Shown: positions 1,213-55,222 of the stretch, one piece after another | How positions within the stretch are numbered: the stretch's first letter is position 1 | Layout: each line of letters begins with the position of its first letter | From: Escherichia coli | GTDB lineage: Bacteria > Pseudomonadota > Gammaproteobacteria > Enterobacterales > Enterobacteriaceae | Length of the DNA stretch: 64,000 nt | Assembly (NCBI RefSeq): GCF_050320075.1 | Contig: NZ_CP190018.1 | Reading direction: 5' to 3' (one strand) | Translations under genes and position numbers: made by a program | Notes under the pieces: model-generated | The model's database searches: none | Seen by the model: only the letters and a program-made list of their open reading frames with translations | What the model was told of the DNA's origin: nothing

Positions 1213-1266
1213 CGCTGACAGGCAGTATATTGAGGTAAAGGATTTAACTCCCTCCAGCCGACAATT

Positions 1267-1303
1267 TTTTATGACCACAATACGACAGGTTGTGGTCATA
1301 AAA
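1267..1303. terminator. hairpin terminator downstream of yfdX
   Basis: Perfect 14-bp inverted repeat TTTTATGACCACAA / TTGTGGTCATAAAA with 9-nt loop, about 55 bp after the yfdX stop, with A/T-rich flanks. Confidence 0.5.
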
Positions 1304-2975: not shown

Positions 2976-3028
2976 TATTAACGGGGGCTTCTGGCTCCCA
3001 ATTTATAAAAATTTCGAGGTTATTAATC

Positions 3029-4723
3029 ATGTCAGATCAACTTCAAATGACAGATGGTATGCATATCATCGTTGAAGCATTAAAACAGAATGATATTGAC
3101 ACTATTTATGGTGTTGTAGGTATTCCTGTGACGGATATGGCGCGCCATGCCCAGGCGGAAGGCATTCGTTATATTGGTTTTCGTCATGAGCAGTCGGCAG
3201 GCTATGCCGCTGCGGCAAGCGGTTTTCTTACCCAAAAACCAGGGATCTGCCTGACAGTGTCTGCGCCAGGATTCCTCAATGGTTTGACCGCATTGGCCAA
3301 CGCAACGGTAAATGGTTTTCCGATGATCATGATTAGCGGCTCCAGCGACCGCGCGATCGTCGACCTACAGCAAGGTGATTATGAAGAGCTGGACCAAATG
3401 AATGCGGCAAAACCGTATGCCAAAGCAGCATTTCGCGTTAATCAGCCGCAGGATCTTGGCATTGCATTGGCACGCGCTATCCGGGTCTCAGTATCGGGTC
3501 GCCCTGGCGGAGTTTATCTTGATTTACCAGCAAATGTCCTGGCCGCGACGATGGAAAAAGACGAAGCGTTAACCACGATTGTAAAAGTTGAAAATCCGTC
3601 GCCAGCATTATTGCCATGCCCGAAGTCAGTCACTAGCGCAATTTCGCTTTTAGCAAAAGCTGAACGACCATTAGTTATCCTTGGCAAAGGCGCGGCGTAT
3701 TCACAAGCGGATGAACAGCTTCGTGAATTTATTGAAAGTGCCCAGATTCCATTCCTGCCAATGTCTATGGCGAAAGGGATCCTCGAAGATACACATCCAC
3801 TTTCTGCGGCAACTGCGCGTTCGTTTGCCCTGGCAAATGCTGACGTTGTCATGCTTGTCGGTGCACGACTGAATTGGTTACTGGCACACGGTAAAAAAGG
3901 ATGGGCGGCAGATACACAGTTTATTCAACTGGATATTGAACCGCAGGAAATTGACAGCAACCGCCCCATTGCTGTGCCAGTCGTTGGCGATATTGCATCC
4001 AGTATGCAAGGTATGCTGGCAGAATTGAAACAAAACACATTTACGACTCCACTGGTATGGCGCGATATTTTAAATATCCACAAGCAGCAAAATGCACAAA
4101 AAATGCATGAAAAATTAAGTACAGATACTCAACCATTAAATTACTTTAATGCATTAAGTGCTGTGCGCGATGTATTGCGCGAGAACCAGGATATTTATTT
4201 AGTTAATGAAGGTGCAAATACCCTGGATAATGCACGAAATATTATTGATATGTATAAACCACGTCGCCGTCTGGATTGTGGTACCTGGGGTGTCATGGGC
4301 ATCGGTATGGGCTATGCCATCGGTGCTAGCGTGACCTCTGGTTCTCCGGTTGTCGCCATTGAAGGTGATAGTGCTTTTGGTTTCAGTGGGATGGAGATTG
4401 AAACGATTTGTCGATATAACCTGCCGGTGACGATCGTTATTTTTAATAATGGCGGCATCTACAGAGGAGACGGTGTTGATCTCAGTGGCGCTGGTGCACC
4501 ATCACCAACAGATCTATTGCACCATGCAAGGTATGACAAATTAATGGATGCGTTTCGTGGCGTTGGCTATAACGTCACTACGACAGATGAACTTCGTCAT
4601 GCTTTAACCACCGGTATTCAGTCGCGCAAACCGACCATTATTAATGTGGTCATCGACCCTGCAGCAGGAACTGAAAGTGGCCATATTACCAAACTTAACC
4701 CAAAACAAGTCGCTGGTAATTAA
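3029..4723 (+). CDS. oxc: oxalyl-CoA decarboxylase (ThDP-dependent)
   Basis: Track ORF 564 aa; thiamine-diphosphate enzyme family sequence recognised as Oxc (YfdU). Confidence 0.95.
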
Positions 4724-4791
4724 ATACTGACATCGTCTCCTCTTGCCAACTCATTATCGATGGTGAGGGGACCCTTATCGGAAATACTATT

Positions 4792-5736
4792 ATGCTAACA
4801 TTTTTTATTGGCGATTTATTGCCTATTATCGTAATCATGCTGTTGGGTTATTTTAGCGGCAGACGAGAAACTTTTTCAGAAGATCAAGCCCGGGCATTTA
4901 ATAAACTGGTATTAAACTACGCTCTTCCTGCGGCCCTATTTGTTTCTATTACCCGGGCAAACAGGGAAATGATTTTTGCGGACACTCGCCTGACCCTTGT
5001 ATCACTTGTGGTTATTGTCGGATGTTTCTTTTTCTCCTGGTTTGGTTGCTACAAATTTTTTAAACGTACTCATGCAGAAGCAGCAGTATGTGCATTAATT
5101 GCAGGTTCACCTACCATCGGATTCCTGGGATTTGCAGTTCTCGATCCTATTTATGGCGATTCCGTATCAACAGGTTTAGTTGTAGCAATTATTTCTATTA
5201 TTGTTAACGCAATTACTATTCCTATTGGTCTGTATTTGCTGAATCCTTCCTCAGGAGCGGATGGTAAGAAGAATAGTAATCTGAGCGCATTAATTTCTGC
5301 GGCAAAGGAGCCAGTAGTATGGGCACCTGTTCTGGCAACGATCCTGGTGTTGGTTGGGGTAAAAATTCCGGCAGCATGGGACCCAACCTTTAATCTGATT
5401 GCGAAGGCTAACTCAGGGGTAGCGGTATTCGCTGCGGGGTTGACTCTGGCTGCACATAAATTCGAATTCAGTGCCGAAATTGCTTATAACACCTTCCTGA
5501 AGCTGATTCTGATGCCACTGGCGCTGCTTCTCGTGGGTATGGCATGTCATTTGAACAGCGAACATTTGCAGATGATGGTACTGGCAGGTGCCTTACCGCC
5601 GGCATTCTCCGGAATCATTATTGCCAGCCGGTTTAATGTCTACACCCGCACTGGTACAGCGTCACTGGCTGTGAGCGTACTGGGCTTTGTCGTCACGGCT
5701 CCTTTGTGGATTTATGTCAGTCGACTGGTTTCATAA
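4792..5736 (+). CDS. yfdV: AEC-family membrane transporter YfdV
   Basis: Track ORF 314 aa, polytopic membrane protein; position between oxc and yfdE. Confidence 0.85.
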
Positions 5737-5764
5737 TTAATCATGTTATTGATTTTACATAAAT

Positions 5765-5795
5765 GCCGAAGTGTCTTTTCACCTTCGGCTTTTTT
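5765..5795 (+). terminator. intrinsic-terminator-like hairpin between yfdV and yfdE
   Basis: GCCGAAG-(11 nt loop)-CTTCGGC followed by TTTTTT; it overlaps the GTG that opens the track ORF at 5771. Confidence 0.45.
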
Positions 5796-5809
5796 CAAGG
5801 CATAAGCAA

Positions 5810-6955
5810 ATGACAAATAATGAATGCAAAGGGCCGTTTGAAGGCTTATTAGTTATCGATATGACACATGTCCTTAATGGACCTTTCGGAACTCAACTTC
5901 TTTGTAATATGGGCGCAAGGGTAATTAAAGTTGAGCCGCCGGGTCATGGTGATGATACCCGCACATTTGGTCCCTATGTGGATGGACAGTCACTCTATTA
6001 CAGTTTTATTAATCATGGCAAAGAGAGTGTGGTTCTTGATTTAAAGAATGATCACGATAAAAGTATATTTATAAATATGCTTAAACAAGCTGATGTATTA
6101 GCTGAGAATTTTCGCCCAGGTACAATGGAAAAACTGGGGTTTTCATGGGAAACGCTACAAGAAATCAACCCGCGTCTCATATATGCTTCATCGTCAGGTT
6201 TTGGGCATACCGGCCCGCTAAAAGATGCTCCAGCCTACGATACCATCATTCAGGCAATGAGCGGGATAATGATGGAAACAGGGTACCCTGATGCTCCGCC
6301 AGTGCGCGTGGGTACCTCTCTTGCGGATTTATGTGGCGGTGTCTATTTATTCAGCGGAATAGTGAGTGCACTTTATGGCCGCGAAAAGAGCCAGAGAGGG
6401 GCGCATGTCGATATAGCGATGTTTGATGCCACGCTGAGTTTTCTGGAGCATGGTCTGATGGCATATATTGCGACAGGGAAGTCACCACAACGCCTGGGAA
6501 ATCGCCATCCCTACATGGCACCTTTTGATGTTTTTGATACTCAGGATAAGCCGATTACGATTTGTTGTGGTAATGACAAGCTTTTTTCTGCGTTATGCCA
6601 GGCACTGGAGCTTACGGAACTGGTTAATGATCCCCGATTTAGCAGCAATATTTTACGCGTACAAAACCAGGCTATTCTTAAACAATATATTGAGCGAACG
6701 TTAAAAACGCAGGCAGCTGAAGTTTGGTTAGCCAAAATACATGAAGTTGGTGTGCCCGTCGCGCCGTTATTAAGTGTGGCTGAGGCCATTAATTTGCCAC
6801 AAACTCAGGCGAGAAATATGTTGATTGAAGCCGGGGGAATAATGATGCCAGGTAATCCGATAAAAATCAGCGGCTGCGCGGACCCGCATGTTATGCCGGG
6901 AGCGGCAACGCTCGACCAACATGGGGAACAAATTCGCCAGGAGTTTTCATCATAA
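5810..6955 (+). CDS. yfdE: family III CoA-transferase YfdE (acetyl-CoA:oxalate CoA-transferase)
   Basis: Track ORF 5771..6955; start moved to the in-frame ATG at 5810 (381 aa) because the upstream part lies inside the hairpin/T-run; paralogous to Frc. Confidence 0.85.
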   Translation: MTNNECKGPFEGLLVIDMTHVLNGPFGTQLLCNMGARVIKVEPPGHGDDTRTFGPYVDGQSLYYSFINHGKESVVLDLKNDHDKSIFINMLKQADVLAENFRPGTMEKLGFSWETLQEINPRLIYASSSGFGHTGPLKDAPAYDTIIQAMSGIMMETGYPDAPPVRVGTSLADLCGGVYLFSGIVSALYGREKSQRGAHVDIAMFDATLSFLEHGLMAYIATGKSPQRLGNRHPYMAPFDVFDTQDKPITICCGNDKLFSALCQALELTELVNDPRFSSNILRVQNQAILKQYIERTLKTQAAEVWLAKIHEVGVPVAPLLSVAEAINLPQTQARNMLIEAGGIMMPGNPIKISGCADPHVMPGAATLDQHGEQIRQEFSS

Positions 6956-6977
6956 ATGTAAGATGTGCTGGTAAATA

Positions 6978-7004
6978 GCTCCCACATTTGAATATTGTGG
7001 GAGC
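6978..7004. terminator. hairpin between convergent yfdE and evgS
   Basis: 9-bp stem GCTCCCACA / TGTGGGAGC with 9-nt loop located between the two convergent stop codons. Confidence 0.45.
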
Positions 7005-7010
7005 CGCTAT

Positions 7011-10000
7011 TTAGTCATTTTGTTGACAGAAAACAGCTATCTCCTGGTCCAGCTCTGCAATGTGTTCTTTAACAGAGTTCAGCAACTTAAGAATTTCAGG
7101 CTTACTGTCATCTGAAACAGGTGTTATTTCTAACTGATGGCTAATATTAATCAACTTTTGCAAATTGAGGATGTTAGCCGCACCGTGGATGCGATGAATA
7201 CACTGATGGAAAGTTCTGTTGTCGCCAGCTTCTAGTGCATGAAACGCAGCGGGTAGATCTTTATGCGTTTCATGCTGGAAAGTCATGAGAATCTCCTGCA
7301 TCAGTTGTAGATCGTTCGCCGTATTATTTTTCAGGGCCTCGATATCAAGGTGGCGATACTGAGGTGCAATAGGCGCAACCTGGTGTAACTGACTTAAATG
7401 TGTTTTCAGTACATCCAGGGTCAACGGTTTGAACAAACATAAGTTCATGCCGCAATTTAACCCTTTTTCACGTTCGTTAGCCTGTGCGTTGGCTGTAAGC
7501 CCCCAGATGGGTAAGGAAGAATTTTGCTCACGGAGTTTGCGAGTCAACTCAAAACCATCCATATTCGGCATATTAACGTCAGTAATAAGCAGATCATAAT
7601 GTTGCATACTGACTTTGTGTAGCGCTTGCACACCATCAGTTGCTTCATCAACATCATATCCTAATAGGTTTAGCTGGCGTTTGAGTAATAGCCTGTTGGT
7701 CGGATGATCATCCGCGATTAATATGCTCAACTTTTCAGGGAGTGTCATGGGTTGTTCTGCTTTTGCCTCGACAGCCGCCACTTGTTGGGTAATTTCTACC
7801 GGGATTGTGATCGTAAATGTCGTTCCTATGCCTGGATGACTTTCTAATGACAAATCGCCCTGCATGTTTTTAATTAATTCTTTGCAGATCATTAAGCCTA
7901 AACCAGAACCTGTTTGCTGACGACCTGCACTTGTTTGGCTATAGCGTTTAAACAGTTGTTGTTGTTCTTCCTGCGATAATCCACTTCCAGAATCCATAAT
8001 CGTCATTTTGATAACAGCGTGGTTGTCATCAATGTCACCCAGGGAGGTCGTAATTTTTACTGCCCCCTCGGTAGTAAATTTAAGAGCATTGCTCAGTAAA
8101 TTAGATAAGACCTGCTTAAACGCCTGAGGGTCGATCTTAACCTGGTAATGTTCTGGAAACGTACTGCTGCAACTTAATGCGATGGATTTGCTTGCAGCAA
8201 TCGCACCGAAAGAATGACAAGTGTTCTGGACTAAAGTAGGGATATCGACCCATTGTGGTTGAAGTTGATAGTTACCCGATTCAATTTTGTCGACATCAAG
8301 GATTTCACCAATTAAGCCGAGGAGTGATTGTCCGGTGGCGTAGGCAAGTGAAATCGCCTCCACCCGTTGCTCCTTGCTAAGACCAGAACCCGACAGAAGT
8401 TCCAGGAAGCCCATAATGGAGCTTATTGGTGTTCTTATTTCGTGACTCATTGTTGCCAGAAACTGGCTTTTTGCGACAGTTGCATTGATCGCTTTATTTC
8501 TCTCTACCTCGAGTGCATGAATTAAATCACGCGTCTCGGTAATATCTTGCCAACCACAAATATAAACAGCATGATCGCTGGCTGGCAGATTGCATAATGT
8601 ATGCCAGTGGTTAATGCATCTTTTCTCGATGCCATTATCAATTTCAAATACCTGTGTGTATATTGTTCGATTTTCTTTCGTTTCTGCTGTGACTTCATGC
8701 GCATTAGAAAAAACATCTTTAAAGGGTGAGTCACTGTTTTCTAATGGTAACATTGCATTTTTGTAGTAATCCGCAGTGAAATAATGTTCAAAAGCACTAT
8801 TATGACTAATGACATTACCTTGCCAGTTTACAACATAAGTTGGATTCGGTAAGGAATCCGAGAGTGCTTTTCGGAATGATATTTGGTTTTCTAAATCACC
8901 CTGAATGACTTTACGACGACGAACTGAGCGTAACAGGTAGAATCCCCATAAAAGGCTACTGCCAACTAATAAAACGGATAATGTCGTGACAATATAAAAT
9001 TGCTCGCTATAGAGGTCCCATGTGTCAATGGTCACATTGGGCATTTTAATCCATTTTTCCGTCAGGCGCAGAACTTCGCTTGGGGGAATTGCATTCAGTG
9101 CTTTATTAATAATATCCTTAAGTTCCGGTTCTCCGCGAGGAAAAGCGAACGAAAGCGATGCATTCGGAACGCCGGGAATAAGAAAATGATAAAGTTCATT
9201 AGGATAGTAATGGTCGATCATGTAACGTGAATTTAACTGTGTCGCGACCAGAGCATCAAGTTCGCCTTCCTTGACCTTGTGAAATGCAGCGCTGGCGTTA
9301 TCGACTTTTATCCACTCTACCTCCGGATACATCTCTTTTAATTGCGAATGAAGCTCATAATAATAGGGAATGGCAACTTTCATTCCTTTTTTTAATGTTT
9401 GTTCACTGTCAGGCGCTTTTTGCATGACAAAAACGTAAGGCGTTGTTATGAAGGCTTCAGCAAATAAAACATTATTTTCTCTATCTTCACTATAAATAGC
9501 GGCGGGCAATATATCCCATCCACCGGGGTTAAGCTGTGTCCCCGCATGAATATTGTGTGAAACGGTGATCGGAGAAAAATTTAAACCTGTTTGCAAGGTA
9601 ATAATATTAAGAATATCACCCATCACGCCCCGAACTGAGCCAGTTTCATCTGTCATAGAATAGGGTGGCGAGTAAGGATTTTCCAGCACCTTTAAATCGG
9701 GATGCTGCTTAATCCACTGTTTTTCATGTTCAGTGAGTTCTAATGGTTTGTTCAGAAAGGCCAGGTTTCCTGTATCAAGCCAATTTTGTGATACTTCATA
9801 GCGAACTTCATTTGTTAAAGCATCAACAAACCGATTGAGTACTTCATTAAGAACGACTGAATCTTTTCTGGTTAAGAAAAAGTTATATTGACGCGGCGAG
9901 TTATAATATTTCACTACATTTAAGGAGTGAGTGAAATAGCGGGAAATCATACTGCTGGTAATAATGTTACTACCAATAAAGTAATCATTCTGTCCGGCTG

Positions 10001-10604
10001 AGACGGATGCTAATGCCTGATATAAATTTGTAAAAGAGATAATTGTTGCTTTTGGAAATGATTGATGAATTACCTCATCTGGAGGGTAATTTGCTACCCG
10101 AGCAATATTTACTGGTTTTGATGAGGTAAGCGGTCTCATTGAATCGTGAAGGGTGGTGACCAGCGCCGGAAAGGTAATTATCAGCGGTTTGGTTGCAGCA
10201 ATGTCATCATTAAGAGGCGGCGAAGCAACTAAATGTGATAACACTATATCGACTTCCCCTTCTGTAAGCGCGTCCATTGCTTTTTGATGATCTGCGTATT
10301 CCCGGAGTGTTAATTTGATATTTAACGCTCTTTTTAAAAGATTTAAATAATCAGCATTAATACCACGAACCCGTTGCTGCGAATCGGTATGCAACAAAGT
10401 AGCCGTTTGGGACTTGTGTACTGCAATCACAAGATTTTTTTTGCTCGCTAACCAACGTAATTCCTTGTTGCTCAGACGTAGTGGATCAAGCGTGACACGG
10501 TTGTTACTACTGATGCCACGATATTCGATGTAATCTTCGTCTGCGAAACTTATGGTCGACCAAAGACCACAACAGAGAAGAATAATATAGGGTAAAAACT
10601 TCAT
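7011..10604 (-). CDS. evgS: hybrid sensor histidine kinase EvgS
   Basis: Track ORF 1197 aa with periplasmic domains, HisKA/HATPase, receiver and HPt regions; sequence recognised as EvgS. Confidence 0.95.
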   Translation of the reverse strand: MKFLPYIILLCCGLWSTISFADEDYIEYRGISSNNRVTLDPLRLSNKELRWLASKKNLVIAVHKSQTATLLHTDSQQRVRGINADYLNLLKRALNIKLTLREYADHQKAMDALTEGEVDIVLSHLVASPPLNDDIAATKPLIITFPALVTTLHDSMRPLTSSKPVNIARVANYPPDEVIHQSFPKATIISFTNLYQALASVSAGQNDYFIGSNIITSSMISRYFTHSLNVVKYYNSPRQYNFFLTRKDSVVLNEVLNRFVDALTNEVRYEVSQNWLDTGNLAFLNKPLELTEHEKQWIKQHPDLKVLENPYSPPYSMTDETGSVRGVMGDILNIITLQTGLNFSPITVSHNIHAGTQLNPGGWDILPAAIYSEDRENNVLFAEAFITTPYVFVMQKAPDSEQTLKKGMKVAIPYYYELHSQLKEMYPEVEWIKVDNASAAFHKVKEGELDALVATQLNSRYMIDHYYPNELYHFLIPGVPNASLSFAFPRGEPELKDIINKALNAIPPSEVLRLTEKWIKMPNVTIDTWDLYSEQFYIVTTLSVLLVGSSLLWGFYLLRSVRRRKVIQGDLENQISFRKALSDSLPNPTYVVNWQGNVISHNSAFEHYFTADYYKNAMLPLENSDSPFKDVFSNAHEVTAETKENRTIYTQVFEIDNGIEKRCINHWHTLCNLPASDHAVYICGWQDITETRDLIHALEVERNKAINATVAKSQFLATMSHEIRTPISSIMGFLELLSGSGLSKEQRVEAISLAYATGQSLLGLIGEILDVDKIESGNYQLQPQWVDIPTLVQNTCHSFGAIAASKSIALSCSSTFPEHYQVKIDPQAFKQVLSNLLSNALKFTTEGAVKITTSLGDIDDNHAVIKMTIMDSGSGLSQEEQQQLFKRYSQTSAGRQQTGSGLGLMICKELIKNMQGDLSLESHPGIGTTFTITIPVEITQQVAAVEAKAEQPMTLPEKLSILIADDHPTNRLLLKRQLNLLGYDVDEATDGVQALHKVSMQHYDLLITDVNMPNMDGFELTRKLREQNSSLPIWGLTANAQANEREKGLNCGMNLCLFKPLTLDVLKTHLSQLHQVAPIAPQYRHLDIEALKNNTANDLQLMQEILMTFQHETHKDLPAAFHALEAGDNRTFHQCIHRIHGAANILNLQKLINISHQLEITPVSDDSKPEILKLLNSVKEHIAELDQEIAVFCQQND

Positions 10605-55153: not shown

Positions 55154-55222
55154 TAACTGATAAGGGCAGGGCCACTGGCTCTGCCCTTTTGCTATTCTCA
55201 CCGTAACGAATCAGCGGATACC

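Follow-up and report, generated by a model that had tools for sequence, protein, structure and literature searches.

The spacer between yfdV and yfdE in Escherichia coli contains a stem-loop directly followed by six T residues, which probably acts as a leaky intrinsic (Rho-independent) terminator, an attenuator internal to the EvgA-activated frc-oxc-yfdV-yfdE unit. The window that we analysed is a 64-kb stretch of DNA, the first 11 kb of which carry, in this order, ypdI (minus strand), yfdX, frc, oxc, yfdV, yfdE, evgS (minus strand) and evgA (minus strand). The open reading frames of this region agree with the RefSeq annotation of K-12 MG1655 and of near-identical strains. The yfdV-yfdE spacer is 73 nt long. 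As described in the initial annotation, a GC-rich hairpin and a TTTTTT tract are found in it just past the yfdV stop codon, the hairpin beginning 28 nt downstream of the TAA on the sense strand. Its overlap with the GTG that opens the mechanical reading frame of yfdE was likewise confirmed, as this triplet makes up the apical end of the 5' arm. The features of the locus are listed in Table 1.

Table 1. Features of the yfdX-evgS region discussed in the text (window coordinates)
Feature	Position	Strand	Basis or remark
ORFs in the first 11 kb	580-1212, 1725-2975, 3029-4723, 4792-5736, 5771/5810-6955; 7011-10604	minus for 7011-10604	ORF list
Stem-loop (7 bp) in the frc-oxc spacer, then A/U-rich tail	2983..2999	+	folding
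Stem-loop in the oxc-yfdV spacer, without U-tract	4735..4772	+	folding versus shuffles
yfdV CDS, 314 aa	4792..5736	+	stop TAA 5734-5736; ORF list, RefSeq of near-identical strains
AU-rich spacer, 28 nt, from yfdV stop to hairpin	5737..5764	+	sequence
Stem-loop	5765..5789	+	5' arm 5765-5773, loop 5774-5779, 3' arm 5780-5789, C5782 bulged
GTG opening the mechanical 394-codon ORF, rejected as start	5771..5773	+	inside the stem, top of the 5' arm
T6 tract, predicted transcript release site	5790..5795	+	directly 3' of the stem
Weak Shine-Dalgarno-like AAGG, 9 nt before ATG 5810	5797..5800	+	duplex with 16S 3' end, -3.0 kcal/mol
yfdE CDS, 381 aa + stop, acetyl-CoA:oxalate CoA-transferase	5810..6955	+	annotation, homologues, published protein
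Stem-loop (9 bp) between the convergent yfdE and evgS stops, operon end	6978..7004	.	folding

The hairpin consists of 5'-GCCGAAGUG (5765-5773), the loop UCUUUU (5774-5779) and CAC-C-UUCGGC (5780-5789). Its stem has 9 bp with a single bulge (C5782), the loop is 6 nt long and the three basal pairs are G-C or C-G. The T6 tract, which corresponds to K-12 NC_000913.3 2489183-2489188 on the minus strand, abuts C5789 directly, and its weighted T-score of 4.23 is among the highest of the window. The 36-nt segment 5762-5797 folds at -12.4 kcal/mol, compared with -2.8 +/- 1.7 kcal/mol for its dinucleotide shuffles (z = -5.74; 0/200 as stable), and when the 94-nt spacer is folded the centroid structure is the 5765-5789 hairpin alone. 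The 28-nt gap upstream should be long enough for a terminating ribosome to leave the hairpin uncovered. The site thus combines, at the sequence level, what defines an intrinsic terminator, namely a GC-rich stem-loop, an adjoining U-tract and a location on the sense strand after a stop codon. As for conditional leaders or riboswitch-type attenuators, none of their features was found, with no alternative structure in the 94-nt fold and an AU-rich, unstructured 28-nt segment upstream. No Rfam family reached threshold in a permissive scan of positions 4700-7100. The sub-threshold matches to rseX (24.3 bits, E 4.5) and Qrr (17.5 bits, E 6.1), for both of which the gathering score is 50, arise because of the generic shape of a hairpin followed by U's.

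How unusual such a site is was estimated by scanning both strands of the window (128 kb) for single hairpins that have a T-rich tail on their 3' side, with a d-score of the d'Aubenton-Carafa type. The formula was combined with modern energy parameters, and the scores serve only as relative ranks, calibrated by shuffles. The 64-kb window contains eleven hairpin and T-tract sites with d > 0, where 12 dinucleotide shuffles gave 2.3 on average, and nine sites reached d >= 3.2, the score of the yfdV-yfdE site, against 1.4 in the shuffles. In relative terms the yfdV-yfdE site ranks 9 of 11, and ~0.001 sites of this kind would be expected by chance on this strand of the 73-nt spacer. It looks terminator-like, real but not strong. 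A simple terminator scanner made no call there because the bulge makes the 7-bp version of the stem resemble an 11-nt loop. A terminator on the minus strand at 5765-5795 was rejected, as the tail on that side reads AUUUAUGUAAAA and the d-score falls far below zero.

Among 5405 E. coli records, 5193 carry the 101-nt junction with an identity of 99% or more, and the median number of places per genome is one (5404 genomes). Substitutions in the sampled E. coli variants all fall outside the hairpin and the T-tract. Because the hairpin is invariant within E. coli, the species says little about covariation, and we compared 16 orthologous oxc-yfdV-yfdE loci from other lineages and nine Yersinia loci. 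The Escherichia and Yersinia hairpins are homologous, with an invariant CCGAAG/CUUCGG core. In Yersinia, both the basal G5765-C5789 pair and the top G5773-C5780 pair are replaced by A-U, which amounts to two compensatory double changes, and the bulge is missing. This bulge causes MAFFT to mis-register the 3' arm of the hairpin. The T-run is T6 in E. coli and T7 in L011, a member of the nearest Escherichia lineage outside E. coli; in Yersinia it ranges from A+T7 to A+T9, and the nine loci differ solely in its length. The 28-nt segment upstream of the hairpin is also partly shared by Escherichia and Yersinia (TAAT-ATGTTATT-A). A single metagenome scan added one further locus of the Escherichia/Yersinia type, identical to L011.

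Beyond these two genera the picture is different. A significant spacer hairpin is present in 14 of the 16 orthologous junctions (z from -2.6 to -7.2; 0 of 15-40 shuffles as stable), L048 and L050 being the two lineages in which none was found. These hairpins end 13-25 nt before the yfdE start, except in L053, where the strongest ends 186 nt upstream and a second hairpin followed by AUUUUU lies near the yfdE start. Their sequences are mostly unrelated among lineages, with about ten sequence types. Outside Escherichia and Yersinia, none of the 16 junctions has a usable U-tract, and 10 other enterobacterial lineages have a hairpin at the same position with no such tract.

Stem-loops are found at every gene boundary of the operon, and in E. 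coli a perfect U-tract accompanies only the one between yfdV and yfdE. The oxc-yfdV spacer, which was meant as a control, forms a hairpin more stable than its shuffles in all 15 loci with a measurable spacer (z from -2.0 to -7.9). The sequences of these hairpins differ between most lineages, often with CCUC/GAGG arms, and they carry no U-tract. As for the 81-nt convergent region between yfdE and evgS, it folds at -23.8 kcal/mol (z = -4.06), and its stem-loop has no strong U-tract on either strand. Since hairpins without U-tract occur in other lineages and at the oxc-yfdV and frc-oxc boundaries, the conserved property is the hairpin rather than the terminator shape. That stem-loops at operon boundaries are conserved in position and not in sequence across Enterobacterales is a mildly interesting by-product of this comparison.

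Published expression data show a step at the yfdV-yfdE junction. In a microarray comparison of evgSc S600I with the wild type, log2 inductions were 8.37 for frc, 6.97 for yfdX, 6.59 for oxc, 6.16 for yfdV and 3.57 for yfdE, which places yfdE at ~12-fold co-induction and ~6-fold below yfdV (PMC4283999 Table S4). As yfdE is still co-induced to that extent, the block must be leaky. In ribosome footprints at pH 5.8 versus 7.6, yfdX (log2 4.89), frc (4.78), yfdV (4.40) and oxc (4.28) were all among the top 20, and yfdE was outside of it, below the 3.33 cut-off (PMC10746267 Table 1). In these data the distal gene is thus co-regulated with the upstream genes at a lower level, as is the case downstream of an attenuator. 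The microarray values for yfdV and yfdE agree with the proposal of the initial annotation that yfdE dosage is set apart from that of frc-oxc-yfdV. Its other proposal, partial termination, is consistent with both the anatomy of the site and the published polarity. The attribution of the expression step to termination at the U-tract is inferred, and so is the efficiency of this termination, which would be roughly 50-85% if nothing else contributed to the microarray step.

The yfdE gene has been described as a member of the yfdXWUVE operon (PMC3720670). Genomic SELEX with the RpoD holoenzyme yielded sites in the yfdX-frc and oxc-yfdV spacers and none for the yfdV-yfdE spacer (PMC3946193), therefore yfdE has no evident promoter of its own. 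The sole consensus-like match, TTTTCA-18-AATAAT (5792-5821), was rejected, given that it overlaps the start codon and that shuffled sequence yields matches of this level at least as often. Among the matches listed for Adams et al. 2021 and TERMITe 2025 there was no 3' end on the sense strand at the junction (K-12 24891xx), a negative that carries no weight, since the operon is silent in the Term-seq media. A GSH/ciprofloxacin microarray was set aside as internally inconsistent (frc down, oxc up). Full-text literature searches on yfdE, and on yfdE or yfdV with terminator, returned no paper describing this terminator.

The initial annotation had also taken ATG 5810 (381 aa) as the likelier start of yfdE, and annotation, published protein, homologues and Shine-Dalgarno pairing all bear this out. 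This start is certain and already the accepted one, hence no correction is called for. The 381 codons span positions 5810-6952, and K-12 b2371/NP_416872.4 and PGAP both give yfdE 1146 nt, i.e. 381 aa. The protein of this length, with Ser381 as its last residue, has been purified and crystallised and is active as an acetyl-CoA:oxalate CoA-transferase; the five or six residues at its N-terminus are disordered in the structure (PMC3720670). In 120 homologues the conserved core starts at a GPF motif, with 2-13 residues before it, and exactly 7 in the enterobacterial ones, as in the 381-aa form. Pairing with the 16S 3' end is absent at GTG 5771 (+0.6 kcal/mol) versus -3.0 kcal/mol at ATG 5810. A purine-rich motif occupies the position of AAGG in most of the 16 orthologous junctions, with pairing energies of -0.7 to -6.8 kcal/mol, several of which are weak. 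We rejected a 394-aa YfdE initiated at GTG 5771, with MSFHLRLFSRHKQ as its extra N-terminus: besides having no Shine-Dalgarno pairing and carrying an extension that homologues lack, it would start at a codon that is GAG in L011/L057, where a 1-nt insertion in the loop also breaks the frame upstream of yfdE. A 16-codon upstream ORF (ATG 5763 to TGA 5811-5813, in ATGA overlap with yfdE) has no Shine-Dalgarno motif and an unconserved frame, and we regard it as fortuitous. ORF-based gene predictions reaching across the hairpin, of 394 aa for E. coli and of 398 or 405 aa for Yersinia, are thus over-extended.

The arguments for termination can now be set against those that weaken it. The anatomy is the canonical one, with 9 bp closed by G-C/C-G pairs at the base, a loop of 6 nt and an uninterrupted U6, and in Escherichia and Yersinia the stem is kept by compensatory changes together with a T-run of at least 6. 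Doubt comes from the weak d-score (3.2, rank 9 of 11, as a relative measure), from the other possible origins of the expression step, i.e. a shorter life of the distal part of the mRNA, transcription of the convergent evgS in antisense, or array and baseline effects, and from the U-run lying beside the Shine-Dalgarno motif, where it could be an S1-binding translation enhancer. Taken broadly, the element is an ordinary intra-operon attenuator or an RNA-stability hairpin, and partial termination is plausible.

The hairpin could instead be mainly an element of RNA stability or processing, an intercistronic decay barrier through which transcription proceeds, an explanation that we hold to be possible but on the whole unlikely. 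RNase E would cut the AU-rich spacers and the hairpin would block 3'-to-5' exonucleases, so that frc-oxc-yfdV would be stabilised while the yfdE segment would decay faster. The U-run of E. coli would then be incidental, or would enhance the use of the weak ribosome-binding site of yfdE by binding S1. Such a role is suggested by the stable hairpins in 14/16 junctions, mostly unrelated in sequence and poor in U-tracts outside Escherichia and Yersinia, by the oxc-yfdV hairpin that beats its shuffles in 15/15 loci, and by the hairpins in the frc-oxc spacer and at the 3' end of yfdE, and the expression step that it would produce is the one expected of termination. It accounts poorly, however, for the U6 to U9 that abuts a GC-closed stem in E. 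coli and Yersinia, an arrangement that is rare by chance, and for a T-run of at least 6 in three diverged lineages. Moreover, RNA polymerase responds to a stem followed by a U-run regardless of any other role of the hairpin. Termination and a decay barrier can coexist.

Another way to explain the low induction of yfdE is that the convergent evgS, which is auto-induced when EvgA is active, is read antisense into yfdE, leading to transcriptional interference or to duplex-dependent degradation of yfdE mRNA and making the hairpin a bystander. The two genes are indeed convergent, with 55 nt between their stop codons and an intervening hairpin without strong U-tract on either strand, and EvgS/EvgA is active in both expression data sets. 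In addition, a plus-strand 3' end antisense to yfdE was mapped at K-12 2488340, 373 nt past the evgS stop (Adams et al. 2021, supplementary file 2). That end lies in the distal third of yfdE, and sense RNA from the first two thirds should consequently be less affected. Antisense transcription would also leave unexplained why a conserved terminator-shaped structure with compensatory changes is located at the yfdV-yfdE junction, and we find it improbable. An even smaller place is left for translation through the hairpin, from GTG 5771 or from ATG 5763, to which we give next to no credence. The frame of the GTG does run open into yfdE, an ATG is found 2-5 nt before the hairpin in E. coli, L011 and Yersinia with a frame open to the yfdE start region, some gene callers produce the 398- and 405-aa Yersinia versions, and in one Yersinia-type contig (L054) the annotated GTG start reads GTT. 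If the upstream ORF were used, the hairpin would be opened by ribosomes, and read-through and translation would become coupled to yfdE. Yet neither upstream start has Shine-Dalgarno pairing (+0.6 kcal/mol), the GTG lies within the stem and L011 has GAG in its place, and because the 1-nt loop indel puts E. coli and L011 in different frames, no peptide is conserved. The homologues of the whole family begin 2-13 residues before GPF, most Yersinia database entries, NCBI's included, are 380 aa long, and the 381-aa enzyme, whose first residues are disordered, is fully active (PMC3720670).

It is also conceivable, if highly improbable, that the yfdV 3' UTR gives rise to a discrete regulatory RNA, whose 3' end would consist of the AU-rich spacer, the hairpin and the U-tail. 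Such an RNA would be made solely under acid conditions with EvgS/EvgA active and would be bound by Hfq or ProQ, and the terminator would then serve to make it as much as to limit yfdE. The succession of an AU-rich stretch, a hairpin and a U-tail at an mRNA 3' end is reminiscent of the terminators of Hfq-binding sRNAs such as rseX and Qrr; unlike those, the yfdV-yfdE tail has only 6 U's and its Rfam matches are far below threshold. In a related variant of this idea, the boundary hairpins, conserved in position and unrelated in sequence, would constitute a modular system that grades enzyme stoichiometry across Enterobacterales.

Two well-known classes of elements also offer parallels. Tuned intrinsic terminators inside operons are represented by the partial terminators that end-enriched RNA-seq has revealed in E. 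coli and in B. subtilis, as well as by the classical rpsU-dnaG-rpoD operon. Like them, the yfdV-yfdE site has a GC-based stem and a contiguous U-tract in a short spacer, and the downstream gene is co-regulated yet expressed at a lower level. It differs in that its termination is deduced from sequence and microarray polarity, that its score is at the weak end, and that the orthologous junctions of other genera have a hairpin and no U-tract. Intercistronic stem-loops that stabilise mRNA, such as the REP elements of malE-malF and the puf operon hairpins of Rhodobacter, resemble the present case by the stem-loop at the 3' end of yfdV, the higher expression of the upstream genes and the hairpins at all operon boundaries. 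In contrast with REP elements, the yfdV-yfdE hairpin is single-copy in E. coli genomes and carries a U-tract. Membership in the REP/BIME family was rejected on the basis of a median of one place per genome in 5404 genomes and of the sequence GCCGAAG...CTTCGGC, which differs from the REP consensus. The hairpin is an element of a routine type and of a well-known class, and its description alters no accepted annotation.

If the yfdV-yfdE site is the leaky terminator that we favour, the following sequence of events can be proposed. As RNA polymerase transcribes positions 5765-5795, the GC-based stem would fold behind it and the six U's would weaken the RNA-DNA hybrid, so that the majority of transcripts would end at about 5790-5795. 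The ended frc-oxc-yfdV mRNA would be capped by a 3' hairpin and thereby guarded from 3' exonucleases. Polymerases that read through would make the yfdE mRNA, which would be translated from ATG 5810 by means of the weak AAGG placed right after the U-tract. As an outcome, yfdE would follow the regulation of the upstream genes, its own level being several-fold below theirs. YfdE only primes the oxalyl-CoA pool from acetyl-CoA, and Frc and Oxc turn the cycle, which consumes protons (PMC3720670). A lower dose of YfdE would fit this priming role, as opposed to the catalytic cycle carried out by Frc and Oxc.

A leaky terminator at this junction would explain why yfdE responds several-fold more weakly to EvgS/EvgA than frc, oxc and yfdV. 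Regulon models and reporter designs should accordingly not assume that the yfdXWUVE operon is expressed evenly throughout.

The hairpin in the yfdV-yfdE spacer is followed in Yersinia genomes by a T-run whose length differs (T7, T8 or T9). In one Yersinia-type contig (L054), the annotated GTG start of yfdE reads GTT, and the sole in-frame yfdE start left is an ATG upstream of the hairpin. In another locus, L050 (~1424-1500), the 3' arm of the L046-type hairpin (TTGTATTCTG) is retained and the 5' arm is replaced, relative to L046 (~1423-1500); the L050 lineage seems to have lost the stem-loop. In the window, the hairpin is covered by a short upstream ORF devoid of a Shine-Dalgarno motif, whose TGA shares bases with the yfdE ATG (ATGA). 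The ATG equivalent to that at 5763 is in the yfdE frame in Yersinia and in L011, the nearest non-coli Escherichia lineage, unlike in the E. coli window.

Over positions 5500-6100, identity to the window reaches 99% in just 349 of 5405 E. coli records and is ~98.3% in most, which places the window in a minority lineage at this locus. The adjoining gene, evgS, is known to be hypervariable. The sole 100%-identical match is strain FFFEB2 (L062, NZ_OZ001728.1), in which IS1B interrupts yfdE near its 5' end, at a position equivalent to ~5900-5930 of the window.

Stem-loops are also found in the other spacers of the operon. That between frc and oxc has an A/U-rich tail on its 3' side, and microarray data on the evgS-constitutive mutant (S600I) place the induction of oxc 1.8 log2 below that of frc (PMC4283999 Table S4). 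As for the oxc-yfdV spacer, 15 of 15 orthologous loci have a stable stem-loop (z -2.0 to -7.9) whose 3' end lies ~15-21 nt upstream of the yfdV start. The stem-loop sequence varies among most lineages, with 5' arms often CCUC-rich and 3' arms often GAGG-rich, and a U-tract is lacking. Genomic SELEX reported an RpoD 'constitutive promoter' in this spacer (PMC3946193).

Features of the operon and strongest terminator-like sites (hairpin + T-tract) ranked by our own scan of the window
Feature	Coordinates	Strand	Remarks
frc-oxc spacer stem-loop	2983-2999		7-bp, GC-rich, GGGGGCU/GGCUCCC
oxc-yfdV spacer stem-loop	4735-4772		counterparts in L003, L004, L011, L014, L040-L052
Upstream ORF	5763-5813		16 codons, MPKCLFTFGFFQGISK*
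yfdE-evgS stem-loop	6978-7004		9-bp, GCUCCCACA/UGUGGGAGC, between convergent stops
Terminator-like site	23728-23747	both	
Terminator-like site	27545-27571	+	
Terminator-like site	31864-31889	+	
Terminator-like site	55164-55186	+	
Terminator-like site	57183-57208	+	
Yersinia-type junctions with variation	L054 1501-1575; L063-L071 ~1220-1300		

The site at 23728-23747 was picked up by the scan on both strands and could thus be a terminator that acts in either direction. At the stem-loop between yfdE and evgS, a strong U-tract is absent from both strands. An antisense 3' end has been mapped inside yfdE, at K-12 position 2488340(+) (Adams et al. 2021, supplementary file 2), which suggests that evgS transcripts extend ~370 nt into yfdE.
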